Origin: Candidatus Binatus soli
Lineage (GTDB): Bacteria; Desulfobacterota; Binatia; Binatales; Binataceae
Length of the DNA stretch: 64,000 bases
NCBI GenBank assembly: GCA_002479255.1
Contig: DLMJ01000005.1
Coordinates: 8,664 to 72,663, forward strand
Reading direction: 5' to 3'
Below the pieces are notes generated by a model, which searched no databases, was not told the origin of the DNA, and saw only the letters and a program-made list of their open reading frames with translations. Shown in pieces: positions 10,305 through 64,000 of the stretch. How positions within the stretch are numbered: the first letter of the stretch is position 1; each line of letters opens with the position of its first letter. The position numbers and the translations under genes were made by a program.

Positions 10305-10312
10305 CGGCGAGG

Positions 10313-44768: not shown

Positions 44769-46052
44769 ATGATTCAAAGCGCTGTGATTCTTTCAACCGG
44801 CGACGAAATCACCAGCGGCAAGGTCGTCGATACCAACGCCAACTACCTTTCCGACAAGCTCTCGGAAATTGGAATCGATCTCGTCGCGGTGATTACGGTC
44901 GGCGACGTTCCCGACCGTCTGGAATGGGCATGGCGCACAGCCATCGCGATGGGCGATGTCGTGATCTCGACCGGCGGCATCGGACCGACCGCCGACGACC
45001 TGACCACCGAAACCGTTGCGCGCGTCGCGGGCGTGAAATTGTGGCGCGACGAGGCCACCGTCGAAAACATGAAGCGCTTGTTTGCGGCGATTGGCCGCCC
45101 AATGCCCGACAACAATCTCAAGCAGGCGCTCTTTCCCGACGGTGCGGCGGTCATCCAGAATCCGCTCGGCACGGCGCCCGGCTTCCGGATGCCGGCAACG
45201 ATCGGCGGCCATACCGCGCATCTGATCGTCCTGCCCGGCGTGCCCCGCGAAATGAAACCGATGATGGAAAATACGCTGATACCGTGGATCTCCGCGAATC
45301 GCGGCACCGACAAAGTTTACGCGGTTCGCGTCTTCCAGACCTTCGGGATGAGCGAGTCGGCGCTCGACGAAGCGGTGGCGGGATTGATCAAACCGGAAGA
45401 GGCCAAGGTCTCGTTCCGCGCGAGCTTCCCGCAGATTTCATTGAAGATCAGAGTCGAGGGACAACCCGGCGAAGTCGATCGCAGGGTCGAAGAGCTGTCC
45501 CGGCGGGTGCGCGAGAAAATCTCGCAGTTCGTTTACGCCGAAGGCGATACCTCGATGGAGGAAGTCGTCGGCCGCTTGTTCATAGAAAAGAAATTTACTC
45601 TGGCGGTCGCCGAATCATGCACCGGCGGGCTGATCGGACATCGCATCACCAACGTTCCCGGCTGCTCGCAATACTTCAAGGGTGACCTCGTCACCTATTC
45701 CAACGACGTGAAGTCCGGCGTGCTCGGCGTTTCCGAGGAGACGCTGAAAACGCACGGCGCCGTGAGCGAAGAATGCGTGCGCGAGATGGCGGCCGGCGTT
45801 CGCAAACGCACGGGCGCGAGCGTGTCGGTCGCGACCTCGGGCATCGCGGGCCCCGACGGCGGCACACCGGACAAGCCGGTCGGCACGGTCTGCATCGCGC
45901 TGTCAGCCGACGATCGGAGCTTCACGCGCCGATACCAGTTCCGCGGCACTCGCGACTGGGTGAAACTGATCACCTCGCAAGTCGCGCTCGACTGGTTGCG
46001 GCGCTACGCGCTGGGTCTGCCGATCGCGGATTCCACGCTGTTCCGCCGCTAA
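44769..46052 (+). CDS. cinA: CinA-family protein (MoCF-biosynthesis-like domain plus nicotinamide-nucleotide amidohydrolase PncC domain)
   Basis: AVILSTGDEITSGKVVDTNANYLS N-terminal MoCF-type domain and C-terminal AESCTGGLIGHRITNVPGCSQYF CinA domain. Confidence 0.85.
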   Translation: MIQSAVILSTGDEITSGKVVDTNANYLSDKLSEIGIDLVAVITVGDVPDRLEWAWRTAIAMGDVVISTGGIGPTADDLTTETVARVAGVKLWRDEATVENMKRLFAAIGRPMPDNNLKQALFPDGAAVIQNPLGTAPGFRMPATIGGHTAHLIVLPGVPREMKPMMENTLIPWISANRGTDKVYAVRVFQTFGMSESALDEAVAGLIKPEEAKVSFRASFPQISLKIRVEGQPGEVDRRVEELSRRVREKISQFVYAEGDTSMEEVVGRLFIEKKFTLAVAESCTGGLIGHRITNVPGCSQYFKGDLVTYSNDVKSGVLGVSEETLKTHGAVSEECVREMAAGVRKRTGASVSVATSGIAGPDGGTPDKPVGTVCIALSADDRSFTRRYQFRGTRDWVKLITSQVALDWLRRYALGLPIADSTLFRR

Positions 46053-46088
46053 CGCGCCCGGTATTGATGGCGCGCGCGCATCTCCATT

Positions 46089-46829
46089 TCAGCTCGCGTG
46101 CTTGACGTCGCCGTTGGCGGCCGCGTTGGCTGCGGCCGTGAAAATATCCATCGGCGCCAGCGGCGGCCGGCGCTTGCGCTTCAAGTCCGCCAGTTCGGCC
46201 TGAGCCTTGGCCTCGGCGTTGCGCTGACGGATCGCCTCGAGCTTGTCGCCGAGTTCGGAGCCGGCGATTTCGTGATTGACGCCCGCCTGCGCGAGCATCC
46301 GCTGAATCGACTCGCGCACTTCTTCGAGCGCGCGAACGTCGTCATCGTAGGAAATCTCCTCGAGCGCACGCTGGATTCGTACCCGCGCCTGCGCGTTCTT
46401 CAGCCGTGCGATCATTCGCACCTTTTCGACCTTGAGCTTCTCGATCTCGCCCTTGAACGCGATCAAATTCTTCTTCGCGTCCTCGGCTTCCGAAGTCAGT
46501 TCGCCGAGTTCTTCGCGCAGCCGCGTGCAATCGCCGTCGAGGATGTGTTTGCGCTGAATCAGAATCAGCGCGCATTGATCCTCGTTCATGTCGGCGGCCT
46601 GCCCCGCTTCTTCGTCGACTTCCGCCATCTCGGCGAGCTTTTCACGCAGCTCGCGCTCGAGCTTGTTGCGCATGTAGATGACGCCGGCCGCCGCGGTCTT
46701 GAGCTGGTGATAGCGCCACACCCGATCCGAGATTGCGGACTCGTACACCGCCTCGGGGTCGCGCGCCTCGCGCGCTTTAATCCAGCGGCTGAACTTGCCT
46801 CCGATCAATTTGAATAATCTTGACAGCAC
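46089..46829 (-). CDS. pspA: PspA/IM30/Vipp1 family protein (phage-shock protein A-like)
   Basis: MLSRLFKLIGGKFSRWIKAREARDPEAVYESAI and extended coiled-coil sequence, typical PspA. Confidence 0.8.
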   Translation of the reverse strand: MLSRLFKLIGGKFSRWIKAREARDPEAVYESAISDRVWRYHQLKTAAAGVIYMRNKLERELREKLAEMAEVDEEAGQAADMNEDQCALILIQRKHILDGDCTRLREELGELTSEAEDAKKNLIAFKGEIEKLKVEKVRMIARLKNAQARVRIQRALEEISYDDDVRALEEVRESIQRMLAQAGVNHEIAGSELGDKLEAIRQRNAEAKAQAELADLKRKRRPPLAPMDIFTAAANAAANGDVKHAS

Positions 46830-46889
46830 TTTCGTTCTCCTTTCGGCGCCGAGCGTGATGCGCTCGCGTAGCCGCCTGTTATTAAAGTT

Positions 46890-47372
46890 TCAGATCCAAC
46901 GTCTGACGCGATTCTTGTAAGCGACGTAATCATTGCCGAAGAGGCGCTCCAGCGTTTCCTCCTCGCGCGGAATTACCATCCGATCGATCACCGCATAGAA
47001 CACCGCCGGCGCCAGCAGCATCGCGATCGAACTGAAGAAGATTGCCAGTCCGAACAACGCGGTCGCGACGCCCAGGTACATGGGGTTTCGCGTCCAGCTG
47101 TACGGCGCCTGCGCGACGAACGCGGTCGGCTCGCCATACGGATTCCTGGTCGTCTCGCGGGCCTGAAAAATCGCGGCCGCGAAGCACGACACTCCCACGC
47201 CGGCCGCAACGACCAGCAGGCCGATCACCTGATACCATCCCACCGTGCGCTCTTCGGGCAGGATGAAGTGCAGCACCAGCGTGCCCAGCACCAGCGCGCC
47301 CGCCAGCAGGGGAGGATAAATCTTCGTCGTCGAGAGCACAGTGCCAGGGGACTCAGGTTCGGTGGAGTTCAT
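46890..47372 (-). CDS. isoprenylcysteine carboxyl methyltransferase (ICMT)/phospholipid methyltransferase family membrane protein
   Basis: 160 aa, 4 TM, RNPMYLG and GNDYVAYKNRVRRWI C-terminal motifs characteristic of ICMT/PEMT-like enzymes. Confidence 0.7.
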   Translation of the reverse strand: MNSTEPESPGTVLSTTKIYPPLLAGALVLGTLVLHFILPEERTVGWYQVIGLLVVAAGVGVSCFAAAIFQARETTRNPYGEPTAFVAQAPYSWTRNPMYLGVATALFGLAIFFSSIAMLLAPAVFYAVIDRMVIPREEETLERLFGNDYVAYKNRVRRWI

Positions 47373-47400
47373 CGCTTACCGTCTCCGTATCTGCGCGAAA

Positions 47401-48855
47401 TCAATTCCCGTCACCCTTGGGCGCAAGCCCGATATCCGCGAGTGTGATCCCGAGTTCGCGCATTTTTTGTTGAAAGCTTTGCCGGTACATCCCGGTTCGT
47501 TCCGCGGCGCGCGAGATATTGCCGCCCGTCGCCCGCAGCGCGCGGATGAAAAAATCGCGTTCCCAATCGCCGACGAATTTTTCTTTCGCCTCGCGAAACG
47601 TCAGCGCCGGGTCGCTGCCTTCGCCGGTCGCAGGTGTGTGATTCGACGCGCCCGGCGCGGGCAGACTGGCGTGGTCGCCATCCGGTTCCGAGCCGGCGAA
47701 AAGATCTTCGGCGGTGATCTCGGCGCCTGACGACAGGATCACCGCCTGTTCGATTGCCGCCTTGAGCGAACGCGCGTTGCCTTTCCACGGCGCCTCGACA
47801 CACGCGCGCATCGCCTCCGCCGTAAGCTGCTTCCGGGGCGCGGAGAAACGTTGGCATGCCTCCGCGATGAAGTGCTGGACCATCAGCGGAACGTCTTCGC
47901 GCCGCTCGCGAATCGGCGGCACCCGAATCTCCACCACCTTCAGGCGGTAGTAGAGATCCTCGCGAAACTTTCCCTGCGCGATCATCGCTTCGAGGTCCTG
48001 ATTGGTCGCCGCGATTATCCGCACGTCCACGCTCAGCGGTTGATTCCCGCCGATCCGCTCGAACCGCTGCTCCTGCAGCACGCGCAGCAATTTGGCCTGC
48101 GTCTCGAGCGCCATGTCGCCGATCTCGTCCAGGAACAATGTGCCGCCGTCGGCGGCTTCGAATTTGCCTTCGCGGCGCGCGACGGCGCCGGTAAACGCGC
48201 CCTTTTCGTGGCCGAACAGCTCGCTCTCGACCAGCTCGCGCGAGAACGCCGCGCAATTGACCGGGATAAACGGCTTGCGCGCGCGCGGACTTCGAAAATG
48301 GATCGCGCGTGCAACCAGCTCCTTGCCGGTGCCGGATTCGCCGCGTATCAAAACCGTGACGTCGGTCGGCGCGACCTTGTCGATCGTCTCGAACACGCGC
48401 ATCATCGTGCGCGATCTCCCGACCATATTCTCGAAAACTCCGGTCTCCAGACGCACCTGTTCGAGCAGTTGGCTATGCGCGCGCTTGAGCAGCTGCGTCT
48501 CCATCACCTTGCGCACTTTCAGGCGCAGCTCGTCGTTGTCGAACGGCTTGGGCAGGTAGTCCTCCGCCCCCGCCTTCATCGCTTCGACTGCGATTCGCTG
48601 CGTGCCGAACGCGGTGATCATCAGCACGGCGCACGCGGGATCGAGTTCGCGGACCTGCTTGAGCAATTCAAGCCCGCTCATTCCCTTCATGCTGAGATCG
48701 GTGATGATCACGTGGAACAGGCCGGCCTTGACCTTCTCGAGCGCTTCCTCGCCCGATTCCGCGGTCTCGACTTCGTAGCCCTCCTTGGTGAAGAGCCCCT
48801 TGAGCGCGATGACGATTCCGCGCTCGTCGTCAACTACCAGCAATCGGCCTTTCAA
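47401..48855 (-). CDS. sigma54-dependent two-component response regulator (NtrC family: REC + AAA+ sigma54-interaction + Fis-type HTH)
   Basis: [10 protein letters not shown] receiver, [15 protein letters not shown] Walker A, GAFTGA sigma54-contact motif, C-terminal HTH. Confidence 0.85.
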
Positions 48856-50366
48856 TTGCGCGCCCTCGAGCTCTCGGTGGACGGCGAACCCGATCCCGGC
48901 GGGACGATCGGCGCGTCCACCGCGCCACGACCGTTGTTTCCCGGCGCCGGTTCCACGGCCGTTTCGATCGCCGGCTCGGCGGACGATTCGATCGATGAAT
49001 CGGCGCTGTCGCGCACCGCGTCGCTGAGCGGAATCGCCAGCACGAATTCGGTTCCCTGGCCCACTTTGCTTTGCACCTCGATCGTTCCGCGATGCGCGTC
49101 GATTACTTTTTTCGCGACGCCCAGCCCGAGCCCGGTGCCATTGGTCTTCGACGTGTAGAACGGATTGAAAATCTTGGCGATCTTGTCGTCCGCAATTCCG
49201 CAGCCGTTGTCGCGAATCCTGACCGCGGCCATTCCCGCGCCATTGTTCTGTATCGCGAACTCGAGCCGGCGCTCGCCGCTCGTCGATTCCATCGCGTCGA
49301 TGGCGTTGTCTATGATGTTGGAAAAAACCTGCCGCAGCTTGTCGGCGTCGGCGCGCACGGTCGGACCGCTCAGGTATGCGCGCGACACCGCCACCGAGTT
49401 CGCCTCCAGCTTGCTGCGCATCTGCGTCAGCGCGCCGTCGAGCACCGACGCGAGATTTGCGTTTTCAAACTTGTAGTCTTCTTCTTTCGCGTATTTGAGC
49501 AGATGCGACACGCTGCGCTCGACACGTGCAAGCTCGTCGAGCGCGACCTTCGCGTATTCCACGTTCTCGTGCGAAGTCGGATCCTCGCCCATCTGCTGCA
49601 CCAGGCTCTTCGCCGCCGCGATCGGATTTCGGATTTCGTGGGCAAAGGTCGCGGTCAACTCGTCCAGCGACGCCTGCTTCTCCGTCCGCAGTTGCTCCTT
49701 CTCCTGCAAAACTTCGCGCTGAACTTCGCGTGCGATCGCGGGATCGAAAACCCGCTGATGAACCCATCGCCAGCCGTACACCGCCGCAAAGTGGCTCGCG
49801 ACTCCAAATCCCCAGAAAAGCGCCGGCCACAGGAACCACGGATATCCGCCGAACCCTCCCGTCAGCAGATTGATGATGAACAGGAAGCCGATGACGATGC
49901 CGTACCACATCAGGTGCACGAAGAAACCCGCCTCGGCCTGGGCGCGTTTGTGCGCGCGCTCGTAGGTCTGGCGCTCGGCGTCGTTCTTGAACTGCGGTGG
50001 CGGCGGCAAATCATTGGCGGGATCCAGGCTGACGCCGCCGTATTTCTGCGTCTGCCGATCGAATCGCGCCCGCAGCTTGCGCTCGAATCGCTCGGCCTTG
50101 GCCTCGAACTTGCGCGCCATCTTGGTATCGAAGTCGCGCTTTATTTTGGAATGAAGATCGTTTGCGAAGCGCTCAGCCGACGCCGTCGTCGAAACCTTCG
50201 CGTCTTCCGCCCACTTCGACCAGTCACGGTGCGACCACTTTGACCAGTCGTGCTTCGACCAGTCGTGCTTCGACCAGTCGCCGTATTTCATCCAGCGCAG
50301 ACGGTTCCGCTTTCGATGTTGCACGACGGCGTAAATGATTAACGCTGCTAAAAGGATGCCCCACAT
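48852..50366 (-). CDS. sensor histidine kinase with N-terminal DWSKH repeats and a 2TM-type membrane module
   Basis: H-box [15 protein letters not shown]1/G2 boxes ([24 protein letters not shown]). N-terminal [27 protein letters not shown] repeat and [42 protein letters not shown] 2TM segment. 4-bp overlap with the response regulator gene. Confidence 0.8.
50217..50285 (-). repeat. 15-nt tandem repeat (cgaccagtcgtgctt x3 plus a degenerate copy) encoding the DWSKH repeats of the histidine kinase
   Basis: Read directly: gaccagtcgtgcttcgaccagtcgtgcttcgaccagtcgccg. Confidence 0.7.
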
Positions 50367-50859
50367 TTTGTCTCACCTGGGGCCGGAAATGCCGGTCCGT
50401 GTAATTGACCTATCGTAGTCGTCAGAACTAACACAATCGATGCCATCTGCCAGTCCTGACCTCTAACTGCAAAGCCGATGCCGACGCACGATTGCGCCAA
50501 AAGCCGAGTATTCGTGCGGATTCCAACGATCGCTCGCGCGTGCGTGACGGCTGAGTGCAGTCGCAACGATGCAGTCTCCACGCTGCATCGCGATCCGCGG
50601 GGGCGCCGACTACGTCGTCGTCGGCAGTCCCATCTGGCGCGCTGCCGAGCCGATCCGCGCCGTGCGCGAGATTACCGACGACATCGAGCGTGGGCTGCGC
50701 AACAGTCCCCGGCGCACGTTTGAAATTCTCAATCCCCGTCCCGTGTAGTCCATCTTCGTTCCGCGTCTGTCTTTCCTATTCGAACCAAACTACGATTGCG
50801 CGAAATGCCCGAGCCAATCATTTGAACTTCAAGTCTGAGCCTGCACTCGGAGCCCGTTC

Positions 50860-51687
50860 TTGCTCGAAATCCTCATCTACCTGTTAGCGCTTGCAGTCGG
50901 CGCCGGATTCATCGGCGCGATCTCGGGCCTCGGTGGCGGAGTCTTCATCGTGCCGGGGCTGGTCATCCTGGCGCACATGCCGATGAAGGTTGCCGTCGGC
51001 GCGAGCCTGATCTCCGTCGTCGCGACCAGCGCCGGAGCCAGCGTCGCATTCGTGCGCGACGGATGGACCAATCTGAAAGTCGCGATGGTGCTGGAATGCG
51101 CGACGGTTACCGGCGCCGTGATCGGCGCCTATCTCGCCGGCGTCGTGCCGACCGTGGTGCTCGAATTGCTCTTCGCCGCCATGATGCTCCAGTCGGCATA
51201 CTTCTCGATGACCAGGCGCGGCGACGACATTCTCACCAGGGGCGACCCGCTCGCCGAGCGCCTGGAACTCTCGGGCGAAGTGCCCGACCTCAGCGGCAAC
51301 ACGGTCCACTATGAAGTCGTGAATGTACCCCAGGGCGGCGCGCTCATGGTCGTCGCGGGCCTCATGTCTGGCCTGCTCGGAATTGGGTCGGGCGCGCTCA
51401 AGGTGACGGCGATGGACTACATCATGCACCTGCCGCTCAAGGTTTCGAGCGCGACCAGCAACTTCATGATCGGCGTCACCGCCGGCGCCGGCGCACTCGT
51501 GTTCCTCGCGCGTGGCGACGTTGCCACCACCATCGCAGCCCCGGTGGCGATTGGAGTCACCGCCGGCGCGCTCGCCGGCAGCCGCGTCCTGCCGCATCTC
51601 AGGGTCGAGTCGCTCCGGACCGTATTCGTGATAATTCTTCTGCTGATCGCGGCCGAGATGGGATGGCGCGCATTATCGGGAATCTAA
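50860..51687 (+). CDS. TauE/SafE family sulfite exporter-like membrane protein (DUF81)
   Basis: Two internally repeated 4-TM halves with GxGGG motifs (ISGLGGGVFIVPGL; LGIGSGALKV). Confidence 0.8.
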   Translation: MLEILIYLLALAVGAGFIGAISGLGGGVFIVPGLVILAHMPMKVAVGASLISVVATSAGASVAFVRDGWTNLKVAMVLECATVTGAVIGAYLAGVVPTVVLELLFAAMMLQSAYFSMTRRGDDILTRGDPLAERLELSGEVPDLSGNTVHYEVVNVPQGGALMVVAGLMSGLLGIGSGALKVTAMDYIMHLPLKVSSATSNFMIGVTAGAGALVFLARGDVATTIAAPVAIGVTAGALAGSRVLPHLRVESLRTVFVIILLLIAAEMGWRALSGI

Positions 51688-51690
51688 GCG

Positions 51691-52080
51691 ATGCCGAAAC
51701 ACGAAGAAGACCGGATACTCAGGGAATGGACGCCGATTCTGCTGCGGTCGATTCTCATCGTCGCGATGCTCGTACTCGGCGCCGGACTCGTCCTGACCTA
51801 CACCTTCGCCCCGGACTACTATGTCGAGCGCTACCAGGCGGCGCAGCATGGTCACCTGATCGGCAAGGAAACGATTGGCCGGTTGTTTGACGGGGTCCGG
51901 CAAGGCAATCCGCATGCGGTGCTGACGATCGGGCTGTTCGTGCTGACGCTGGTCCCGCTCGCGCGCGTCGCGTTCTGCTTCGTCCTCTTCATCCGGGAAC
52001 GCGACTACACGTATGTTGCTCTTACGGCCTACGTGCTCGCAGGGTTGATCGTTGGTGTGCTGGTAGGGAATGTCGGTTAG
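51691..52080 (+). CDS. DUF1634-family small membrane protein (commonly paired with TauE/SafE)
   Basis: 129 aa, 3 TM; the gene pairing with DUF81 is a known conserved arrangement. Confidence 0.55.
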   Translation: MPKHEEDRILREWTPILLRSILIVAMLVLGAGLVLTYTFAPDYYVERYQAAQHGHLIGKETIGRLFDGVRQGNPHAVLTIGLFVLTLVPLARVAFCFVLFIRERDYTYVALTAYVLAGLIVGVLVGNVG

Positions 52081-52113
52081 TGATCGATTAGTATTCGGAC
52101 GGAGGATCGCGCA

Positions 52114-52893
52114 ATGGAAATAAAGGGAAAGGTCGGCGTCGTCACCGGCGGCTCATCGGGGATCGGGCGTGCAACGGCACAGCGGTTGGCGAAAGAAGGC
52201 GCCGCGATCGTGGTCGCCGATCTCGACGAAGCCGGCGGCGCCGAAACCGTCAAGCGTATCAAGACCGCCGGCAGCCGTGCCGTTTTTGTGAAGGCAGACG
52301 TCACCAGGATCGAGGACGCTCGCCGGATGCTCGACACCGCGGTCTCCGAGTTCGGCCGCCTCGACATCCTGCACAACAACGCCGGCATCGGCGTGGGCGC
52401 GCCCGGCTTTCCCGAAGCACCGCCTGAGCGATGGCGCCTGGTGATCGAGATCGACCTGCAGGCCGTCATTCTCGGCACCGGCCTCGCGGCTCCGCTGATG
52501 CAAGCGAACGGCGGCGGCGCCATCGTCAACACGGCCTCGATGGCCGGCTTGTATCCGCATCGCCAGGACGTGGTTTATGGCGCGGCCAAGGGCGGCGTTG
52601 TGAACTTCACGCATTCCCTGGCGTTCTGGGAAGCGGAACGGAAAATCCGCGTCAACTGCGTCTGCCCGGGAATCGTCGATACTCCGATGGTGCACAAGGG
52701 ACTCGAGGCGGCCACCAAACTTGGGTTTTTGGCGAGAGCTTGGATACCGGCGAAGATGATTCAGCCCGAGGAAATCGCCGACGCAGTCGTCAGCCTCGTC
52801 CGCGACGATTCGCTGTTCGGATGCGCGCTGGAAATTCGCCCGAGTGGCCGCCAAATCGTCGATCCGCGTCGCGCCCCCGGCTCCCTGAGATAA
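52114..52893 (+). CDS. SDR family NAD(P)-dependent oxidoreductase
   Basis: GKVGVVTGGSSGIGRA cofactor motif, NNAG, and catalytic YGAAK. Confidence 0.85.
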   Translation: MEIKGKVGVVTGGSSGIGRATAQRLAKEGAAIVVADLDEAGGAETVKRIKTAGSRAVFVKADVTRIEDARRMLDTAVSEFGRLDILHNNAGIGVGAPGFPEAPPERWRLVIEIDLQAVILGTGLAAPLMQANGGGAIVNTASMAGLYPHRQDVVYGAAKGGVVNFTHSLAFWEAERKIRVNCVCPGIVDTPMVHKGLEAATKLGFLARAWIPAKMIQPEEIADAVVSLVRDDSLFGCALEIRPSGRQIVDPRRAPGSLR

Positions 52894-53037
52894 AAAAACA
52901 GAGGCGGTCGATGACCGCCTCCGCTGCGAGCTGAATGTAGCGCGCGTCGATTGAAGCGCGACTCTGCGGCGACGGAGACTACTCCGCATTCGCGTCCGGG
53001 CTGCCGCCGGGCGCGCGCGACTCGATGATCTCGCGCG

Positions 53038-53262
53038 TCAGTTCTGGCTGGAGGTGCCGCCGTCCGGAGCCTTCATGTTTCGCTCCAGACACCAACGGTC
53101 GATCACCTCGGCGTTGAAACGCCAATCGGTGCCGATCCGAAAGCCCGGCAGCTCTCCGCGACGAAGCAGCTTGTAGATTGTCGATGGATGCACACGCAGA
53201 TATTCGGACAATTCCTTGACCGTCATCACGCGCGGCAGGTTATACTTGGTTTCATTAGCCAT
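53038..53262 (-). CDS. excisionase-family helix-turn-helix DNA-binding protein
   Basis: MANETKYNLPRVMTVKELSEYLRVHPSTIYKLLRRGELPGFRIGTDWRFNAEVIDRW, closely paralogous to the 27151-27384 product. The longer ORF to 53400 is probably over-extended. Confidence 0.7.
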   Translation of the reverse strand: MANETKYNLPRVMTVKELSEYLRVHPSTIYKLLRRGELPGFRIGTDWRFNAEVIDRWCLERNMKAPDGGTSSQN

Positions 53263-53547
53263 GATACTCCCCGGTAACGTCCCCGTCGGTCGCCTACTCC
53301 CTGGATTTGATGCCTTTTTTCGCATCTCGAATGATTCAATCCGCCCGTTACGCCCACCATGAGCCTGTATGAGAGTCTCAAAATAATCACTGGCGGTCAA
53401 GAGGTGCTTAAGGGGACTTCTGGTACTTTTCGCGTTTCTCTCCTTTATTGTATGTGAAGTCAGCTATTCTTGCAGAGATTTCGATAACAAAATGCTCAGC
53501 TAAGCTCTAAACGATGCCTGTGAGTGCCTTGAAATGAGGTCATAAGC

Positions 53548-54087
53548 ATGCCAAGTACGCGAATTTCAATTTTGCTAATCTTCGCCTGGCTTGGCCTTGC
53601 TCACGCCCAACCAGCCCAAGCCCAAATGAGGCTGACCAGCCCCGCGATCGCTCCCGGAGCCGCAATTGCCGATGACTACGCATGTACTGGCGCCGATCGA
53701 TCCCCCGCGCTCGCATGGAGCGATGCGCCGCAATCAACGAAAACGAAATCATTTGCATTGATCGTCGACGACCCCGACGCTCCCCATGGAACATTTTTTC
53801 ATTGGGTGGCGTACAATATTGCGGCTGGCGAAACTTCGCTGCCGGCAGGCGTGCCGCAAACCGCGGAAATTGCCGGCGGCGGAACAAATGGAATCAACAG
53901 CTTCGAGCATATCGGCTACAATGGACCGTGTCCGCCGCCGGGGAAAATGCATCACTATCGTTTTCATCTCTTCGCGCTGGATTCGACGTTGACTCCCGGC
54001 GACCCGGCGGACGCGGCCGCCGTCCAGTCCGCGATGAGAGGTCACGTCGTCGCGACCGCGGAATTGGTCGGCACATTCGAACGATGA
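53548..54087 (+). CDS. YbhB/YbcL family (PEBP/Raf-kinase-inhibitor-like) secreted protein
   Basis: Signal peptide plus conserved LIVDDPDAPHGTFFHWVAYNI and GYNGPCPPPGKMHHYRFHLFAL motifs. Confidence 0.75.
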   Translation: MPSTRISILLIFAWLGLAHAQPAQAQMRLTSPAIAPGAAIADDYACTGADRSPALAWSDAPQSTKTKSFALIVDDPDAPHGTFFHWVAYNIAAGETSLPAGVPQTAEIAGGGTNGINSFEHIGYNGPCPPPGKMHHYRFHLFALDSTLTPGDPADAAAVQSAMRGHVVATAELVGTFER

Positions 54088-54106
54088 GGTAAAAGCGGAT
54101 TCATCG

Positions 54107-54706
54107 ATGAAGACAGTACTCAAAATCCTGGCTGGAGTGATTGTTCTCGCAGTCGTCGCGATCGTGGGATGGCGTTACTATCAAATACATCGCGCGCGGC
54201 AGGCCGGCCTGCTCACCGAGAACATCGGGCATGACGGCAACGTCTGGAAGGCCGATTTCACCGCGCGCATCCCGGCCCCCGAGCAGACCGTCTTCACCGC
54301 GATTCGCGACGTCGAAAAAATGCACAACGATCAGGTCAAGGCGGTGCGCGTCGTATCCCAGAGCGGAAATAAAAAGACCGTCGATATGGATATCGCGGGA
54401 CCGGGCGGACAAACGATTACCACCGAGCTTGAGTTCGAGTACCTGCCCGACCAGAACAAGATCGCCTATCACACCGTCGACAATCCGCTGCTCGATACTC
54501 AGGCCGTGTACCAACTCGGCGATGAAGGCGCGAGCACGTTCATCGACTACCACGAAACCACGCATCTGCTGCAGTCGTTTCCCGTCCCCGACGGCGTCAT
54601 CAAGCAGGTCATTCGCGGCATCTTCATCGCGCAGCTCGAAACCTTGAAGCGCACCCTCAACATCAAGACCGCCGACGAGACCCCCTCCCGTGACGACGAA
54701 CCCTGA
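54107..54706 (+). CDS. membrane-anchored SRPBCC (START/polyketide-cyclase-like) superfamily protein
   Basis: N-terminal TM helix then ~170 aa with SRPBCC-like alternating pattern; assignment tentative. Confidence 0.45.
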   Translation: MKTVLKILAGVIVLAVVAIVGWRYYQIHRARQAGLLTENIGHDGNVWKADFTARIPAPEQTVFTAIRDVEKMHNDQVKAVRVVSQSGNKKTVDMDIAGPGGQTITTELEFEYLPDQNKIAYHTVDNPLLDTQAVYQLGDEGASTFIDYHETTHLLQSFPVPDGVIKQVIRGIFIAQLETLKRTLNIKTADETPSRDDEP

Positions 54707-54879
54707 CGGCGCCCGCCGTTTCCGCGCGAGCAGTACGATGAACGTAATGACTTGCCGCAGGCAGGCGGAAGGCGCGAAATTGATGACGATCAAAGATACA
54801 GCGCAAATCGAGTGGGACGAGATCCGTAAGATCGACCATTACGCGTTGTCGGTGAAGGATCTCGCAAAATAACACGAAG

Positions 54880-55797
54880 ATGCATTTTCCAGACAGCGTT
54901 GCGCGTGCACTCAAAAAGGCTCTCGTCAATGTATTCTGGACGAAGAAAGACCTTCGCGAATTGTTTAGCCGCTGCGATGTTCCAGCCAATCTGACAAACG
55001 CCCAAGATTGGAACGGATACAAGTTTCACATCATCGATCCCGTCATTGACTCCCTCAACGGATCACCGGACGGGCTTGGACCATTACGCCGAATCCTCGC
55101 CGAAACCCTTCACTACAAAGATGGCAATCACCTTCTGTGGCTCTCGGACGGCCAGAAGCGAAAACGAGAGGCGGAAGATTCGTTGGAGCATCTGAGGGTC
55201 TTGGTCGAAAAGCACGATGCGTCGCTGGAAGCGGAACGTACGAAGCAGGAACAGCGGCGTCGCGAGCAGGACGAGAGAGCTCGAAAGCAATCGTTCTCGG
55301 AGACGCGCGAACATCTAAAGCAGCATTTCTTAACCTTGTATGCCGCGCTCGACCGGCAGCAGAGCGGCTACGGATTAGAAGATCTCCTGTACCAAGTCTT
55401 CGATCTTTTCGAATTGCAGCCGCGCGGGCCATTTCGCCTTGCCGGAGAACAGATCGACGGCGCGTTCGTCCACGAGTCGACCGATTTTTTGCTTGAGGCG
55501 AAGTGGTAGAAGGCCCCTGCAAATCTGGAAGCGCTTCGCGATCTCGATGGCGCAGTCGGGTCAAACCTGGACAATACACTTGGGCTGTTCATTTCGATCC
55601 ATGGGTACACCGGGGAAGCACTCGATCGGTATCGGCAGGGAAATCGGCCGCGAATTGTCTGCATGGACGGCGCTGACCTGATGGCCGTCCTGGAGGGTCA
55701 GATTGATCTCAACGACCTCTTGCGCCGAAAGAAGGCGATCGCCGCGCAACGAGGCGAAGTATTTGCGCCCGTTTCCAAAATAATCCTAGGAGAGATG
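54880..55797 (+). pseudogene. Mrr-like PD-(D/E)xK restriction-endonuclease-domain protein with N-terminal coiled-coil/sensor region, interrupted by an in-frame TAG at 55507-55509
   Basis: Reading through the TAG gives ...GYGLEDLLYQVFDLFELQPRGPFRLAGEQIDGAFVHESTDFLLEAKW*KAPANLEALRDLDGAVGS...LGLFISIHGYTGEALD...RPRIVCMDGADLMAVLEG. This matches the Mrr_cat layout (G..E..v..Lf...G......GDgGIDg.......iQaKry....v...v..l.G........G.liTts.ft..A.......i.LiDG..L), with the stop directly after the E-x-K catalytic motif. Lower GC (~52%) than the flanks. Confidence 0.55.
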
Positions 55798-55800
55798 TAG

Positions 55801-56811
55801 ATGACCGCGGGGAAGATTGCATGTCCGCTCTGCGACTTGAGCCAACCGCTCGCTGCCAGCTCATCTGATCCCGATGGCGATCGCACGGCGGTTCGTTGTC
55901 GGCGATGCGGGGAGTTCTCAATTCCGTCCCGGATTCCTGAAAACTGGGATATAGGACGGATACCTCAGTTTCTGCTTGAGAAGAGAGTCAGACGCTCCGA
56001 TCAGCCGCGCGGCCGCGAGCTCCTACGGAAGTATCTGTCTATCTACAGCCGTGAATGCCAGGAAACCGGCAGGCGGGCTGAATTTCCAGTACCTTTCGAC
56101 CTTTCTGAGATGGAGCTGCTAGCCGAAACCTACGCGCATACGTCTGTTCCAGACCGTGCAGATAGGCTGCTTCGCTTTCTCGCGCGACGGACTGACTACC
56201 CCGGAAAACCCGTAGGGGTAAACGCGTACTACGATTATCCTGTGCCACATGCTATCGAGGCCGAGGAATTCGACTATTATCTGGAATACCTCGCTCACGC
56301 AGGTTGGATCGAACGACCAGCAGGTTTGGACGCAAAGATCTCCGGGCAGGATCCGGAGATAGAGTACGATCGCGAAACCATCGTCACGGTTGAGGGTTGG
56401 AAACGCATCGCTTCGCTCGGCGGCGGTCGTGTCGCTTTCGTCGCCATGTCATTCGCCACGGAACTGGACGACGCCTTTCTCGAAGGTCTCACTCCGGGCA
56501 TATGCGACGCTGGCTACCAGGCATTGCGGGTAGACAAGATCGAGCATAACGAGAAAATTTGCGACCGAATCGTCTCCGAGATTCGAAGAGCCAGGTTTCT
56601 TGTAGCCGACGTGACAAATCAGCGGCCAGGCGTTTATTTCGAGGCCGGATTTGCAATGGGATTGGGCATGCCGGTCATCTGGTGCTGCAGAAAGGACGAT
56701 CTCGCTAACGTCCATTTCGACACTCGGCAGTACAACCACATCGTCTGGGAAACGCCAGCGGAGCTGCGTACCAGACTTCGTGACAGGATTCTCGCCACGC
56801 TTGCGGCCTGA
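55801..56811 (+). CDS. hypothetical protein: N-terminal C4 zinc ribbon, central unknown domain, C-terminal nucleoside 2-deoxyribosyltransferase-like (NDT/Rcl/TIR-related Rossmannoid) domain
   Basis: CPLC...CRRC zinc ribbon. C-terminal RVAFVAMSF...ARFLVADVTNQRPGVYFEAGFAMGLGMPVIWCC follows the NDT-family pattern (strand, then sDlvvA..d......GtafElGyA.alGKPvi) including the catalytic-position Glu. Starts 4 bp after the Mrr-like ORF; low GC. Confidence 0.5.
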   Translation: MTAGKIACPLCDLSQPLAASSSDPDGDRTAVRCRRCGEFSIPSRIPENWDIGRIPQFLLEKRVRRSDQPRGRELLRKYLSIYSRECQETGRRAEFPVPFDLSEMELLAETYAHTSVPDRADRLLRFLARRTDYPGKPVGVNAYYDYPVPHAIEAEEFDYYLEYLAHAGWIERPAGLDAKISGQDPEIEYDRETIVTVEGWKRIASLGGGRVAFVAMSFATELDDAFLEGLTPGICDAGYQALRVDKIEHNEKICDRIVSEIRRARFLVADVTNQRPGVYFEAGFAMGLGMPVIWCCRKDDLANVHFDTRQYNHIVWETPAELRTRLRDRILATLAA

Positions 56812-57131
56812 ATGAATGGTATCCAAGGAATGCAAGACAGCTAGCAGAGATAAGGTCTCCAATTGCGTTGGTGAGCGTGCATTCGGCACTTGAAAAATCC
56901 GTCCGGCATGGGCATCCGAGCACGCTCCATCTCTGGTGCGCGCGACGGCCGCCAGGCCGCCCGCCGCGCAACGCTGCTGGCGCTGCTGCTCCCCGACCCG
57001 TGCGATGAGGACTGTCCGGAAGAGTTCAAGGACACAGTGAGGATCTGTGACCAAAGACGACGCGGTGCGTCAGCGTCGCCCGAGGTACCGACGAGTAGGA
57101 CCTGATTAGTCATGTTCAAGCGACCCATACC

Positions 57132-58427
57132 ATGATCCGCTTCAACGCAGAATTCGTAGCATCCGCGTTCGCTCTCGACGGATGCCCGCGATGGAAGCGC
57201 GCCGAGGTCGCGCTCGCCGGCCGCTCCAACGTGGGCAAGAGTTCCCTGCTCAACGCGCTCGCCGGAGTGAAGGGTCTCGCGCGGACCAGCAAAACCCCCG
57301 GACGCACGCGATGCCTCAACTTCTTCTCGGTCGGCGACACGCTCGCGCTATGCGACCTGCCCGGCTTCGGCTACGCGAAGATGGGTCATGAGGAAGCGGC
57401 CAAAATCGCTTTTATGATGCACGAATACATCCACGAGCGCGTCAATCTCGCCGCCATCGCGATTCTCGTCGATTGCCGCCGCGGTCCTCAGCACGACGAA
57501 CTCGATCTGGCGGCGATGGCCGCGGAGCGCGGCATCGAAGTAATTCCGGTCGCGACCAAGTGTGACAAGCTGCGCCGTTCGGAGCGCGCAGCCGCGCTCA
57601 AACGTTTCGACTCGATGCGCGTGGCGCCGATCTTCTGTTCGGCGACGTCCGGCGAGGGAATCGACGATCTGCGCCGCCGAATCCTTGCCGTCGATCGGAT
57701 GGATGCCGCTGAACCCGGGCCGCATAGCGAATCGAATTCTGCGACTTTCGACGAATGGCTGAAATGGGTTTTCGACCACCCGGTTGCAGAAAACACGTCG
57801 GACGAATGGTGGTGGCAGGAGCCTGACTACGATGAAGGCGGCAGGTGGTTGGACCGGCCGCCGATGCCGGCATTAGCGTTCGTTGCAAAACTCTTCGAGA
57901 ATCCGTTGCAGTACCTGTCTTGTTATAGCGACGCTCAGATCAATCAGGGTCTCGATTTCATTGTCAGTACATCCTGCTCTAAACATTTCCACTGGCTCAT
58001 AGACGGCAGAGTCGATCTTAATCTTCGAAAGCGTTGCATCCGATCAATTGAGGGTCTTTCCCGCGAGTTGTTCGCGCCGAGGTGTTCGGACGATGTCTGC
58101 AAAGGCACGAAGCCACTGGATTACATTTGCTTCATGCTCTGGGATCTTGCGATACACCATGCTTGTCACCGTGAGGATAATCCCGACGGTACTTACTCGG
58201 AGGTCCGCGATCCTGAAATCGACAAGGAATCCGTCAATACGCTCGCCCGCATAATCACAATACCAAGCCTCGCGTGTCAGCAATCGGCTCTGCATGGACT
58301 CGGCCACCTGGTTGACGACGCTTGTCTGGGAGCGAACATTATCCAGAAATATTTGGATGACCATCCAAACCTGCGTAGCGATATTCGGACATACGCGCAG
58401 CGGGCTCTGTTGGGCAAAGTACAGTAA
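57132..58427 (+). CDS. engB: ribosome-biogenesis GTPase EngB/YihA/YsxC fused to a ~230-aa Cys/His-rich C-terminal extension of unknown function
   Basis: N-terminal ~200 aa with GRSNVGKSSLLNAL (G1), KTPGRTR, DLPGFGYAK (G3), TKCDKL (G4), SA (G5). One continuous ORF continues for ~230 aa (…CYSD…CSKHFHW…CIRS…CSDDVC…HHACH…) with markedly lower GC (~52%) than the GTPase part (~66%). Confidence 0.7.
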   Translation: MIRFNAEFVASAFALDGCPRWKRAEVALAGRSNVGKSSLLNALAGVKGLARTSKTPGRTRCLNFFSVGDTLALCDLPGFGYAKMGHEEAAKIAFMMHEYIHERVNLAAIAILVDCRRGPQHDELDLAAMAAERGIEVIPVATKCDKLRRSERAAALKRFDSMRVAPIFCSATSGEGIDDLRRRILAVDRMDAAEPGPHSESNSATFDEWLKWVFDHPVAENTSDEWWWQEPDYDEGGRWLDRPPMPALAFVAKLFENPLQYLSCYSDAQINQGLDFIVSTSCSKHFHWLIDGRVDLNLRKRCIRSIEGLSRELFAPRCSDDVCKGTKPLDYICFMLWDLAIHHACHREDNPDGTYSEVRDPEIDKESVNTLARIITIPSLACQQSALHGLGHLVDDACLGANIIQKYLDDHPNLRSDIRTYAQRALLGKVQ

Positions 58428-58470
58428 GGCTGAAGACCCGAGGCGCTGCCGTCCGGGACGCTGCATCAGG

Positions 58471-59385
58471 ATGAGACCAGAAGTTTCGGTAATTATCCCG
58501 GCTTACAATCGATGCGCGATGCTGCTTGAGGCGATCGATTCCGTGCTCGCCCAATCGACCCCGGCGTTCGAGTTGATCGTCATCGACGACGGCTCGACCG
58601 ATGGGACCGCCGAGCACCTGGCGCGGCTGGCTGAAACGATCCGAATGAAAATTGACCGCATCGATCATCGCGGTCCGGCCGCGGCGCGAAACCGCGGCGT
58701 CGCCATCGCGCGCGCGCCGCTGATCGCATTCCTCGATTCCGACGATCTCTGGTCGCCGACCAAGCTCGAACGCCAGCTCGCGTTCATGCGCGACAACCCC
58801 GGCTGCGCGATCTCGCAAACCAACGAAATCTGGATCCGCAACGGGCGGCGCGTGAATCCCGGCCACCGCCATCGCAAGCGCGCCGGCGATATTTTCATCG
58901 ACTCGCTCCGCACCTGCCTGATTGCCATGTCGTCGGTGATGATACGCACCGATCTTTTCCGCTCATTTGGCGGCTTCGACGAGCTCATGACCGCCGCCGA
59001 AGACTACGATCTATGGCTGCGAATTCTCATCGACCATGAAGCCGGCCTGCTCGACGAACCGCTGGTGACGCGCCGCGGCGGGCATCCCGATCAAACCTCG
59101 GCCACGACTCCTGCCCTCGATCGCTTCCGCATTCTCGCGCTTGCAAAATTGCTCGCGGACGACCGGCTTTCCCCGGCGCGGCGAACTTCGGTGGTCGAAG
59201 TATTGGCCGAAAAATGCCGTATCTACGCGGGCGGCCTTCGGCGACGAGGCAGAATCGACGAGGCGCGACTGTACGAATCGGTCGCTGAACAGGCGCGAGG
59301 CTGGGATACGCGTGCGGCTCCTGAAATCGGATGCACGGTCAAGGCGATGCGATCCATGATTCGCGAAATTCCACATGAATGCTGA
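58471..59385 (+). CDS. family 2 glycosyltransferase
   Basis: VSVIIPAYNRCAMLLEAIDSVLAQS...IVIDDGSTDGT...AFLDSDDLW...AEDYDLWLR, canonical GT-A/GT2 motifs (DxD, ED). ATG at 58471. Confidence 0.8.
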   Translation: MRPEVSVIIPAYNRCAMLLEAIDSVLAQSTPAFELIVIDDGSTDGTAEHLARLAETIRMKIDRIDHRGPAAARNRGVAIARAPLIAFLDSDDLWSPTKLERQLAFMRDNPGCAISQTNEIWIRNGRRVNPGHRHRKRAGDIFIDSLRTCLIAMSSVMIRTDLFRSFGGFDELMTAAEDYDLWLRILIDHEAGLLDEPLVTRRGGHPDQTSATTPALDRFRILALAKLLADDRLSPARRTSVVEVLAEKCRIYAGGLRRRGRIDEARLYESVAEQARGWDTRAAPEIGCTVKAMRSMIREIPHEC

Positions 59386-59911
59386 CGAGATCGACGCGCA
59401 GATTCGGATGCTCGCTGCCGAGCGACGGCTGCCGCCGAGCCATCTTGCGCGATGGCTCGCGATGGACCCGGCGTCGCGTGCCGCGATGCTCGATATCGCG
59501 CGCGTCATCCGCCTGCGGACCGGTCAATTGATGACCGCACTGGAGACGCTTGAGGAAATCGCCGTGCGCGAGCACGTCACAGCCGCCGGCGTTCTCGGCC
59601 GCCCCGAAATCAGGCGCATTGCGGGCGGTCCCGGCTCCGCGCCGTCGCGCGCGAGCGCGCTGCTCGAAGCGCTTCGAACGCTTCGCTACCCCCTCCTTAA
59701 GAAAATGCAGGAGCAGATCCGCTCTGAAGTCTCGGCGCTGAAGCTCCCCCGCGGAATTTCGGTGGTCTTGCCCAAAGAGCTTGGCTCTGATGAGCTCACC
59801 GTTTCGCTTCGGGTGCGAAGCGCCGCCGAACTGGCGCGCCTGCTCGAGGCGCTGGATCGCTCGCGCACGGGACTGACAAGGATTATTGAAATGCTTGGCG
59901 GTAAAAGGTGA
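59375..59911 (+). CDS. hypothetical protein (178 aa)
   Basis: ORF overlapping the GT2 stop by 11 bp, Ala/Arg/Leu-rich helical sequence; no motif recognised. Real coding status uncertain. Confidence 0.35.
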   Translation: MNADEIDAQIRMLAAERRLPPSHLARWLAMDPASRAAMLDIARVIRLRTGQLMTALETLEEIAVREHVTAAGVLGRPEIRRIAGGPGSAPSRASALLEALRTLRYPLLKKMQEQIRSEVSALKLPRGISVVLPKELGSDELTVSLRVRSAAELARLLEALDRSRTGLTRIIEMLGGKR

Positions 59912-59921
59912 AAAGTGAAAA

Positions 59922-61022
59922 ATGAAATTTGACCTCGACGCCGTGCTTGTCGAGCACGGATGCGCCGGCTCTGCGCTGGCGACTCGCATCCTGCGCGCGC
60001 TCCCGCGCCATGTGCCCGTCACGCATGTCGCCGACAACGAAACGCGCGAGGCGACCAGGCCCGCATCCGGCGCGCGCGATCCGTTCGGGGCAGGCAAACG
60101 CCGGATGGTGATCGCGCGGCGCAAGACTCCGTTCCTGATGCCGTGTCACGCAGGCTCCTCCAGGTTCGCCTGCTGCGGATACCTCGTGCTCACGCTCGCA
60201 TCGAACTGCCCGATGGATTGCTCGTACTGCTTTCTGCAGGAATATCTGGCTGACAATCCCGCCTTCCAGGTATATGCGAATTTCACCGATTCATTCGACG
60301 AGCTCGACCGGCTCATCGACAACGCTCGCGGGCGCAGCTTCCGCGTCGGCACCGCTGAGCTGGCGGATTCGCTCGCGTTCGACTCGATTACCTCGATCAG
60401 CCGCGACCTGATCGATTTTTTTGCCTCGCGCGAGAATCTGACGCTCGAGCTCAAGACCAAAACCGACGAAATTGAAAATCTTCTTGGCCGGGACCCGCGC
60501 GGCCGCGTGCTCGTCTCGTGGACCTTGTCGCCGGCCGCCGTCTATCGAAGCTCGGAGCATCTCACCGCCTCGCCCACGGCGCGAATCGCGGCGGCGCGCG
60601 CCGTCCTCGACGCCGGCTACCGCGTGGCGTTCCATCTCGATCCGTTGATCGCATATCCCGGCGCCGAGCGCGATTACCTGCTGCTGATCGACGAGTTGCT
60701 GGACACTATCGCGCCCAAACAAATCTCGTTCATCAGCATGGGCGGTCTGCGGATGACGCCGCGGTTGCGCGGCGCCGCGCGCAGCCGTTTCCCCGGCGAT
60801 CCGATGCTATGCGGCGAGGACGTGCTCGCCGCTGACGGACGGTTTCGGACATTCACCCCGCTGCGCCTCAACCTCTACCGCACGCTTGCCGATCGCTTCC
60901 GAAAAGCGGGCGCGGAAATCCCCGCCTATCTGTGCATGGAAGCGGCCAGCGTCCATGAAAGCGTCTTTGGCGCGGCGCCCTCACGGCCGGCTATAATCGG
61001 CAACCGCCTCGCGCGCGACTGA
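59922..61022 (+). CDS. radical SAM protein of the spore-photoproduct-lyase (SplB)-like DNA repair family
   Basis: CPMDCSYCFLQ radical-SAM cluster motif in the SPL-like context (LTLASNC...YCFLQEYL), 366 aa. Confidence 0.65.
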   Translation: MKFDLDAVLVEHGCAGSALATRILRALPRHVPVTHVADNETREATRPASGARDPFGAGKRRMVIARRKTPFLMPCHAGSSRFACCGYLVLTLASNCPMDCSYCFLQEYLADNPAFQVYANFTDSFDELDRLIDNARGRSFRVGTAELADSLAFDSITSISRDLIDFFASRENLTLELKTKTDEIENLLGRDPRGRVLVSWTLSPAAVYRSSEHLTASPTARIAAARAVLDAGYRVAFHLDPLIAYPGAERDYLLLIDELLDTIAPKQISFISMGGLRMTPRLRGAARSRFPGDPMLCGEDVLAADGRFRTFTPLRLNLYRTLADRFRKAGAEIPAYLCMEAASVHESVFGAAPSRPAIIGNRLARD

Positions 61023-61054
61023 GCACGGGCCGCACACCCGCGGATTCAAAAATA

Positions 61055-61927
61055 ATGCCGACCCGTAAAAAATCTGCAACCCGGCCAAATTCGATCGCGC
61101 CTTCCAACGGACTTCTTCGCGGCTCGCGCGCGGCGATCGATCGGCCCATCGGCGTGTTCGATTCGGGAATCGGCGGACTCACCGTCCTGAAAGCGCTGAC
61201 CGCGGCTCTGCCCAATGAAGATTTCATCTACCTCGGCGACACTGCCCGGCTTCCCTACGGCACGAAATCCAACGAAGTCATCGTCCGCTACTCGAAGGAG
61301 AACACCGGCTTCCTGCTCGCCAAGGGAATCAAGATGCTGGTGGTCGCCTGCAACACGTCCAGCGCGGTCGCGCTCGACGCAATCGCGTCGGACACGATGA
61401 TCCCCGTGATCGGCGTGATCGAGCCGGGCGTGCGCGCCGCCGTCAAGGCTTCGCGCAACGGCAGAATAGGCGTGATCGGCACCGAAGCAACGATCGCGTC
61501 CGGCGCTTACACGCGCGCGATCCAGCGGCTAAGCCCGCGCTCCGAAATCTACACGCGCGCGTGCCCGCTGCTGGTGCCGCTGGCCGAGGAAGGATGGACC
61601 GACAATGCGGTCGCGGAATTGACCGTCGCCCACTACCTCGAGAGTCTCAAACAGAGCGGCATCGACACGCTGCTGCTGGGATGCACCCATTACCCGCTGC
61701 TGCGCGATATGTTCGCGCGAATTCTTGGGCCCCGCGTGAAGATCGTGGACTCCGCGACTGCGACCGCGGCCGACGTGCGCGACCGGCTGCGGATTCTCAA
61801 GCTCGCCCGGCGCACCGGCAAAGGGATTCAGAGTTTCTTCGTGACCGAGACCCCCGATCGTTTCGTCCGCGTCGGTCGCAGATTTCTCGGCCCGCAGGTC
61901 GAATCCGCCGTCCGAATCGAGCGCTAG
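61055..61927 (+). CDS. murI: glutamate racemase (ORF start probably over-extended; conserved core starts ~61145)
   Basis: IGVFDSGIGGLTVLKAL, YLGDTARLPYG, VVACNTSS, GCTHYPLL: canonical MurI motifs. Confidence 0.85.
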   Translation: MPTRKKSATRPNSIAPSNGLLRGSRAAIDRPIGVFDSGIGGLTVLKALTAALPNEDFIYLGDTARLPYGTKSNEVIVRYSKENTGFLLAKGIKMLVVACNTSSAVALDAIASDTMIPVIGVIEPGVRAAVKASRNGRIGVIGTEATIASGAYTRAIQRLSPRSEIYTRACPLLVPLAEEGWTDNAVAELTVAHYLESLKQSGIDTLLLGCTHYPLLRDMFARILGPRVKIVDSATATAADVRDRLRILKLARRTGKGIQSFFVTETPDRFVRVGRRFLGPQVESAVRIER

Positions 61928-62117
61928 TCCGCTCTCCTTACCCTGGTGCAGGGAATGACCCCCTGCCTACCGACCCGATTTCGGGATAAGATGATTTCCA
62001 GCTAAACTTGCGGAGTTGTTTCACTCTTTCACTGTGCCACCGGTCAGACCGCATCGCTCTGGCTCGTCGAGAACCTGATCTCAAAAAAACACTTGCCGCG
62101 AAAATCGCTCATATAAG

Positions 62118-64000
<1,883 letters not shown>

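Follow-up and report, generated by a model that had tools for sequence, protein, structure and literature searches.

Two accessory genes, one freshly interrupted, in the probable remains of an Hma defence island in Candidatus Binatus soli

We analysed a 64,000-nucleotide stretch of the Candidatus Binatus soli assembly GCA_002479255.1 (contig DLMJ01000005.1, positions 8,664 to 72,663 of the forward strand; hereafter the window) and, within it, a locus in which two genes lie between the stubs of two others. All four are on the plus strand. The first is a 3′ relic of hmaA, the gene for an SNF2 helicase with a C-terminal NOV_C nuclease, of which the last 44 codons plus the stop codon survive (54738..54872). 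It is followed by gene 1 (54880..55800), a pseudogene of 306 codons for an Mrr-type PD-(D/E)xK nuclease that was delineated by frame, profile, alignment and model, and that is interrupted by a premature TAG at codon 210 (55507..55509). Gene 2 (55801..56811), recognized from its open reading frame (ORF), profiles and conservation, is intact and encodes a 336-residue protein with a C4 zinc ribbon and a domain resembling DNPH1, nucleoside 2-deoxyribosyltransferases (NDTs) and TIR domains. The last is a degenerate 5′ relic of hmaB (56817..57045; ~75 codons, ~230 bp), the gene for a DUF1156 N6-adenine methyltransferase. A preliminary description of this DNA had proposed that the two genes form a defence-like module and had set them 4 bp apart; the gap is in fact 0 bp, as gene 1's own stop codon (TAG, 55798–55800) abuts the ATG of gene 2 at 55801.

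The nuclease assignment of gene 1 was examined in profile searches with the premature stop read as Gln. Pfam Mrr_cat (PF04471) matches residues 190–269 with 24.8 bits against a cut-off of 21 (E 2.5e-5), and it also matches 88 of 90 members of the gene 1 family. In the family alignment, D193 (55456–8) and E206 (55495–7) are invariant and K208 (55501–3) is nearly so; both the catalytic D...(D/E)-x-K signature and a restriction-endonuclease fold are present. The AlphaFold model (pLDDT 93) comprises a helical bundle (residues 1–77), a single 65-residue helix (91–155) and an alpha/beta nuclease core (159–306). The Mrr-like nuclease domain and the coiled coil that had been read from the sequence were thus both upheld. 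Compared with the Mrr and Type IV restriction endonucleases (PF04471; AF1548, PDB 1y88), gene 1 is truncated by its stop codon, and whereas E. coli Mrr has a winged-helix DNA-binding domain, gene 1 carries the helical N-terminal domain and the coiled coil instead. A sequence-profile search of the PDB with the gene 1 family returned nothing at E 1 or better, NCBIfam gave no match for gene 1 or gene 2, and the PADLOC match of gene 1 was weak (PDC-S02, 0.006).

The N-terminal region was considered as an adaptor domain of the EAD type. EADs are adaptors fused to effectors, and a paired copy on a neighbouring core component is their hallmark (PMC7159879). EAD1 (PF19955) scores 18.3 bits on gene 1, below its cut-off of 24.2 (E 0.003), and reaches E 0.01 or better in 11 of the 90 family members (best 5.5e-4). 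A hidden Markov model of residues 1–88 recovered only gene 1 orthologues when it was run against all ORFs of 14 Hma loci and the window. Set against the EAD1/Death-like adaptors of NTP-dependent conflict systems (PMC7159879), the gene 1 domain is therefore below the cut-off and unpaired, and we rejected the paired-adaptor assignment on both counts, the Pfam score and the lack of a second copy of the domain in neighbouring proteins.

Gene 2 divides into a C4 zinc ribbon (55822–55908), a helical middle region (residues ~56–206) and a C-terminal DNPH1/NDT/TIR-like Rossmannoid domain (residues ~208–336; 56422–56808). The zinc ligands C8, C11, C33 and C36 are conserved in the family, which agrees with the zinc ribbon proposed earlier. 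The proposal of an NDT/Rcl/TIR-like domain with a catalytic Glu likewise held. Although Nuc_deoxyrib_tr (PF05014) falls just short of its cut-off on gene 2 itself (27.6 bits vs. 28.8; E 3.5e-6), it reaches E 0.01 or better in 96 of the 98 members of the family. The family profile matches Rcl/DNPH1 in the PDB (E 6e-4) with E281 (56641–56643) aligned to the catalytic Glu, and Foldseek, with DNPH1/Rcl as its top match, supports a Rossmannoid fold carrying that residue. The PADLOC “Effector TIR” model matches in part (9.4e-10); Pfam reported no TIR and no DUF4062 match on gene 2.

How does such a protein compare with characterized relatives? DNPH1/Rcl, MilB/BcmB and the nucleoside 2-deoxyribosyltransferases (PF05014) are single-domain metabolic proteins, and beyond what those enzymes have, gene 2 possesses a zinc ribbon, a helical domain and an invariant HFDTRQYNH motif of its own. 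DNPH1 and MilB act on hydroxymethylated pyrimidine nucleotides, and one may speculate, by analogy, that phage-specific modified nucleotides could be the substrate of gene 2. As a Rossmannoid N-glycosidase-type domain with a catalytic Glu, it resembles the NDT-like effector of retron Ec86/Eco1, ThsB, the TIR-APAZ protein of SPARTA and the DUF4062 protein “Swarozyc”. With the retron NDT-like effector and the TIR-like NADases, which deplete nucleotides or NAD+ in defence, it shares the fusion of such a domain to a putative nucleic-acid-binding or sensor region. The retron Ec86 effector depletes adenine derivatives (10.1101/2023.08.16.553469), and TIR-like NADases, including DUF4062, offer a further precedent (10.64898/2026.05.01.722283). 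Gene 2 differs from these systems in its domain order, which is sensor then enzyme where the retron effector has the reverse, and in its company: unlike retrons, SPARTA and Thoeris, it has no reverse transcriptase, Argonaute or ThsA partner beside it. The Pfam table of gene calls within ±10 kb on a JGI contig syntenic with the window (L008) contains no reverse transcriptase, although retron non-coding RNA was not searched for, and no reverse transcriptase family appears among the families shown for 139 neighbours of gene 2 relatives. The preliminary description had also linked the pair to nucleotide signalling. That idea found no footing, whether for CBASS, Thoeris or Pycsar: no cyclase or other signal-making enzyme lies nearby, the ±10-kb gene table of L008 lists no CD-NTase, SLOG, SAVED or STING family, and neither protein matches such families.

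The identity of the locus emerged from its flanks. Homologues of the two genes stand side by side in metagenome contigs L001–L007, between an SNF2/NOV_C helicase and a DUF1156 protein, with a DUF499 protein following the latter in L001 and L002. The flanking proteins of L001 match the PADLOC models of HmaA (2e-166), HmaB (1e-118) and HmaC (1e-92). The order hmaA, gene 1, gene 2, hmaB, hmaC is intact in L001–L004 and L175; L005–L007 and L179 follow the same order as far as the contigs extend. When the L001 proteins were searched against the window with tblastn, residues 1085–1128 of HmaA (1128 aa) aligned at 54738–54869 with 64% identity (E 1.8e-12). Residues 3–42 of HmaB aligned at 56823–56942 and residues 59–75 at 56992–57042 in another frame (summed E 7.6e-14). 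DNA alignments confirmed both stubs, that of hmaA with the intact L001 and that of hmaB, which has a 1-nt insertion and an in-frame stop, with L001, L175 and L179. HmaC found nothing better than E 2.8 anywhere in the 64 kb. The window holds no functional HmaA, HmaB or HmaC; its relatives L001 and L175 encode full-length HmaA. The JGI annotation of L008 calls a 60-residue ORF corresponding to window 54690–54872 as a gene; its last 44 codons are the hmaA relic, and it is not a gene of its own.

Hma is a published hotspot: defence genes have been inserted into 66.5% of hma loci (PMC11232893). In a survey from 2026 it goes under the new name of Type-1 BREX-related system, and PD-(D/E)xK nucleases are reported there as the commonest auxiliary effectors of such loci; the terms NDT, deoxyribosyltransferase, Mrr and EAD are absent from its text (PMC12839542). 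The intact relatives hold both genes between hmaA and hmaB, precisely at the published insertion hotspot, whereas in the window only a 3′ remnant of hmaA and a 5′ remnant of hmaB frame the pair. Because these two stubs flank it, the pair represents the surviving middle of an Hma island, from the island's variable region. The preliminary description, which had recognized no named system in this architecture, had overlooked the flanking stubs. The association with defence that it suspected is supported.

Base composition is in keeping with a foreign origin. The pair has a G+C content of 55.7%, vs. 60.9% for the whole window (standard deviation of 2-kb windows, 2.2%), and G+C at third codon positions (GC3) is 61–63% in the pair vs. 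77–79% in the adjoining genes; both genes are compositionally foreign. The stretch is among the three lowest-GC 2-kb stretches of the window, so the low-GC islet of the preliminary description is real, though less extreme than the 52% against 67% given there. The remaining low-GC spots are porin and citrate synthase genes, not islands. A transfer RNA gene was considered as an integration site and discarded, the window's sole one (24503–24591) being distant from the locus. A promoter and terminator scan of 54000–57400 gave no more signals than shuffled sequence, and so is uninformative on how the orphaned genes are transcribed.

When was the island lost, and what has happened to the pair since? 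A Candidatus Binataceae metagenome-assembled genome (L009, CAVRNO010000003.1) is syntenic with window 47265–64000 at 85–94% nucleotide identity. Both share the left junction, in which the end of a Polyketide_cyc2 gene is followed by the 44-codon hmaA stub; the hmaB stub before engB is shorter in L009 than in the window. The simplest reading is that one ancestral truncation of the island lies behind both. Between these two orphaned loci, the rates of non-synonymous and synonymous substitution in gene 1 are dN 0.026 and dS 0.65 (dN/dS 0.04), meaning that strong purifying selection was kept up without Hma. Comparison with L179, which retains a long 3′ part of hmaA and the start of hmaB, gave dN/dS of 0.055 for gene 1 and 0.089 for gene 2. 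In gene 2, the L009 copy (10001–11160) is only 52% identical in protein to its counterpart (window 55801–56951); no alignment is possible over its first ~600 nt, and the remainder is 70.6% identical, while gene 1 and the flanks stand at 85–91%. This pattern suggests that the gene 2 allele of L009 may have been replaced by recombination after the island was truncated.

The premature TAG is confirmed by translation of 54880–55800. It follows the catalytic K208 by two codons (DFLLEAKW-stop-KAPANLE), after which the frame stays open, as had been noted, for 96 codons rather than the 95 counted before. The stop removes residues 210–306, including strands 234–239 and 259–263 of the model. As the 209-residue product lacks half of the nuclease core, it should be inactive, and the gene 1 protein of this strain is almost certainly dead. 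Over window 44879–64000, L008 is 99.57% identical, the differences amounting to one gap and 82 mismatches. Its genes stand in the same order, and its gene 1 product (P0121), of 306 residues, is uninterrupted, with Gln at position 210. Only two base differences separate the gene 1 sequences, a synonymous one at 55353 and C>T at 55507; gene 2 is identical. CAG occupies the position in L008, L009 and L001, and Gln is the family consensus there, which identifies the ancestral codon, one substitution away from TAG as had been anticipated, and led us to reject recoding of the TAG. With two gene 1 differences from L008 and dN/dS of 0.04–0.06 to the relatives, the earlier view of a recent point change rather than an old pseudogene is vindicated: unless it is an error, the nonsense change goes back to one very recent transition and does not reflect old decay.

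Is the TAG then an artefact of sequencing or assembly, or a minority variant in the consensus, with gene 1 intact in the organism? The change involves one base only, and the nearest relative, L008, carries CAG in an otherwise identical protein. Against this, 83 differences over 19 kb separate the window from L008, which makes it an independent haplotype rather than the same assembly seen twice; among real mutations, C>T is the commonest; and two more orphaned copies bear independent lesions. We consider an artefact distinctly unlikely. The lesion of L009 is a 2-bp deletion (~9470) that shifts the frame in the coiled-coil region, possibly an assembly error, and that of L095 (~1000) is a 135-bp in-frame deletion of 45 codons by which the catalytic D...E-x-K is lost. 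Lesions therefore affect three of five orphaned gene 1 copies (window, L009 and L095), a small and non-independent sample; the copies in L008 and in the 4326-bp contig described below are intact. None of the gene 1 copies examined inside Hma loci has a lesion. It is possible, as proposed in the preliminary description, that gene 1 is a toxic effector that had to be silenced, and one may advance, as a hypothesis only, that without Hma the nuclease turns into a burden.

Do the two genes nevertheless constitute a system in their own right? This alternative holds that they are a dedicated, autonomous two-gene defence system, a nuclease effector coupled to an NDT/TIR-like signalling or depletion enzyme, for which Hma is merely one landing site. 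In its favour, the gene 1 stop abuts the gene 2 start in every pair seen (window, L001, L005, L009, L175 and L179); the adjacency recurs with gene 2 alleles of 92, 79, 75, ~50 and 45% identity; the pair outlived the loss of Hma with a gene 1 dN/dS of 0.04; and an orphaned pair exists in another context too. We surveyed the gene 2 family, which exceeds 3,800 clusters at 90% identity, by fetching 80 genome loci and clustering the neighbouring ORFs within ±6 kb. These loci span Binatota, Planctomycetota, Acidobacteriota, Nitrospirota, Desulfobacterota, Chloroflexota, archaea and others. Gene 1 is missing from 79 of the 80, the syntenic L009 being the only one to have it, and no conserved partner was evident in the clustering, as even the most frequent neighbour family was limited to 6 loci. 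A self-contained, conserved two-gene system, as the preliminary description had proposed, is not supported. Searches of 139 immediate neighbours with Pfam and PADLOC yielded a heterogeneous mix that includes DUF559 proteins, Type I restriction-modification S subunits, mad3 and mad5 of MADS, Schlafen-like proteins, OLD-type ATPases and transposases.

The loci of gene 1 relatives were examined as well. All 13 loci with usable flanks and a gene 1 relative at least 55% identical contain Hma genes, and gene 1 usually comes directly after hmaA. In L093, L096, L098, L099 and L102 (55–65% identity), hmaB follows gene 1 immediately, without gene 2; elsewhere the abutting slot is taken by a GGACT/AIG2-like gene (L177 and L178) or by another Mrr_cat protein (L089). 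Among 21 more distant relatives (at most 54% identity, at least 5 kb of flank), gene 2 occurs in none, there is no common partner, and only two have any Hma-like gene. Adjacency of the two genes is limited to gene 1 copies of ~74% identity or more; within that clade, the identity of the gene 2 allele ranges between 92% and ~45%. All of this makes an autonomous two-gene system unlikely; the data are best described by an accessory nuclease that stays constant while the slot behind it, within the Hma hotspot, varies, and not by a co-inherited two-gene system. Far more improbable still is the notion that these are ordinary housekeeping genes, a salvage deoxyribosyltransferase and a generic Type IV Mrr enzyme, adjacent by chance. 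Some sources do label gene 2 relatives “nucleoside 2-deoxyribosyltransferase”, and the matched Pfam families are generic; yet salvage NDTs lack the zinc ribbon and the about 150 extra residues of gene 2, gene 2 is distributed patchily over many phyla and archaea, GC3 is foreign in both genes, and both genes sit within Hma loci in relatives.

On balance, we assign a probability of roughly 0.7 to the interpretation that window 54738–57045 is what remains of a horizontally acquired Hma island with two accessory genes. Several observations weigh against it. Orphaned pairs exist in at least one other flanking context, the 4326-bp contig of JGI sample 3300067032, so that transfer of an already truncated fragment is possible. 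That two flanking deletions both spared the pair, and that dN/dS stayed low once it was orphaned, hints at a value of its own beyond that of passive debris. The neighbours of gene 2 relatives mix defence genes with housekeeping ones (ArgJ, a tRNA synthetase, carbamoyl-phosphate synthase), PADLOC has no model for either whole protein, and a role of either family in phage defence is putative.

The contig from sample 3300067032 carries a gene 1 copy (P0122) that is 95% identical and intact, followed by a 334-residue NDT-like gene. As read from its gene annotation, the pair there lies behind SnoaL-like and acyl-CoA-dehydrogenase-fragment genes, and hmaA is not present.

In the scheme that we favour, in which we infer the defence function, the substrates and any interaction of the two proteins, an Hma island encoding the HmaA helicase-nuclease, the HmaB DUF1156 methylase and the HmaC DUF499 ATPase would have been acquired horizontally. 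Deletions would then have taken hmaC and all but small parts of hmaA and hmaB, leaving the two accessory genes. Gene 1 would encode a DNA endonuclease of the Mrr type, with a small helical domain at its N-terminus and a coiled coil as its stalk. The protein is probably oligomeric, with gating probably exerted through the N-terminal bundle, and it likely served Hma as an auxiliary or back-up nuclease. The gene 2 product is most likely a self-contained sensor and N-glycosidase that would break down a nucleotide or NAD+ when infection occurs, its zinc-ribbon and helical part acting as a sensor or nucleic-acid-binding region coupled to the enzyme. Elsewhere gene 2 is mostly solitary, and its presence in the slot behind gene 1 is optional.

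A more far-reaching proposal combines two claims, and we regard the combination as doubtful. In one Hma clade, gene 1 and whichever gene abuts it would form an autonomous module of constant nuclease plus swappable partner, and the zinc-ribbon/NDT-like family would be a single-gene anti-phage system. Gene 1 would here be a Death/EAD-like adaptor joined to a coiled coil and an Mrr nuclease, its partner being NDT-like, GGACT-like or other; the activity would persist after the loss of Hma (dN/dS 0.04), with the nuclease costly enough for repeated knock-out. Separately, the partnerless family found in many phyla could protect against phage by itself, as a so far unrecognised single-gene system acting by cleavage of a nucleotide or NAD+.

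Under the interpretation of a decayed Hma island, the region is left over from a known defence system and carries two uncharacterised accessory effectors, one of them freshly inactivated; it is not a new kind of system. It presents a case of decay of a multi-gene defence island, in which accessory cargo genes can outlast the core. An NDT/DNPH1-like enzyme and an Mrr-like family with a coiled-coil stalk are new to the list of variable-region genes of Hma (Type-1 BREX-related) loci, and the large, scattered zinc-ribbon/NDT-like family is a reasonable candidate for a single-gene defence protein that degrades nucleotides or NAD+. The recurrent, independent knock-outs of the nuclease provide a concrete case in which to ask whether accessory nucleases are a liability without their parent system, including its methylase.

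Some of the Hma loci have features of their own. In L177 (5681–7153) and L178 (6781–8253), the GGACT/AIG2-like gene that replaces the NDT-like gene encodes 180 residues and abuts gene 1. HmaA and HmaC of these contigs are 93–94% identical to those of L001, whereas gene 1 is 76% and HmaB 66% identical; judged from these sequences, the centre of the locus appears to be a recombination mosaic. L180 (2–8886) is a decaying Hma locus, with hmaA broken into two ORFs and hmaB likewise. A 99-residue NDT-like remnant, with residues 1–75 joined to about 283–335, follows gene 1, and a DUF433/PIN toxin-antitoxin pair precedes hmaC.

Two genes close to the relic merit description. On the minus strand at window 53038–53600, ~1.3 kb upstream of the relic, there is an HTH_17 gene of the excisionase type, which adjoins the most AT-rich stretch of that part of the window (53200–53599, 47% GC). 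It also occurs in L009 and is thus not recent; it may be a candidate contributor to the mobility of the island. On the other side, a gene for an EngB/YihA-like GTPase of 431 residues (window 57132–58427) is covered by Pfam over residues 22–183 only. Its C-terminal ~240 residues match no family and are encoded by a low-GC (~52%) segment (57697–58470) that is absent from L009, where the alignment jumps from window position 57697 to 58470. This segment may be a second insertion beside the relic, fused in frame to engB.

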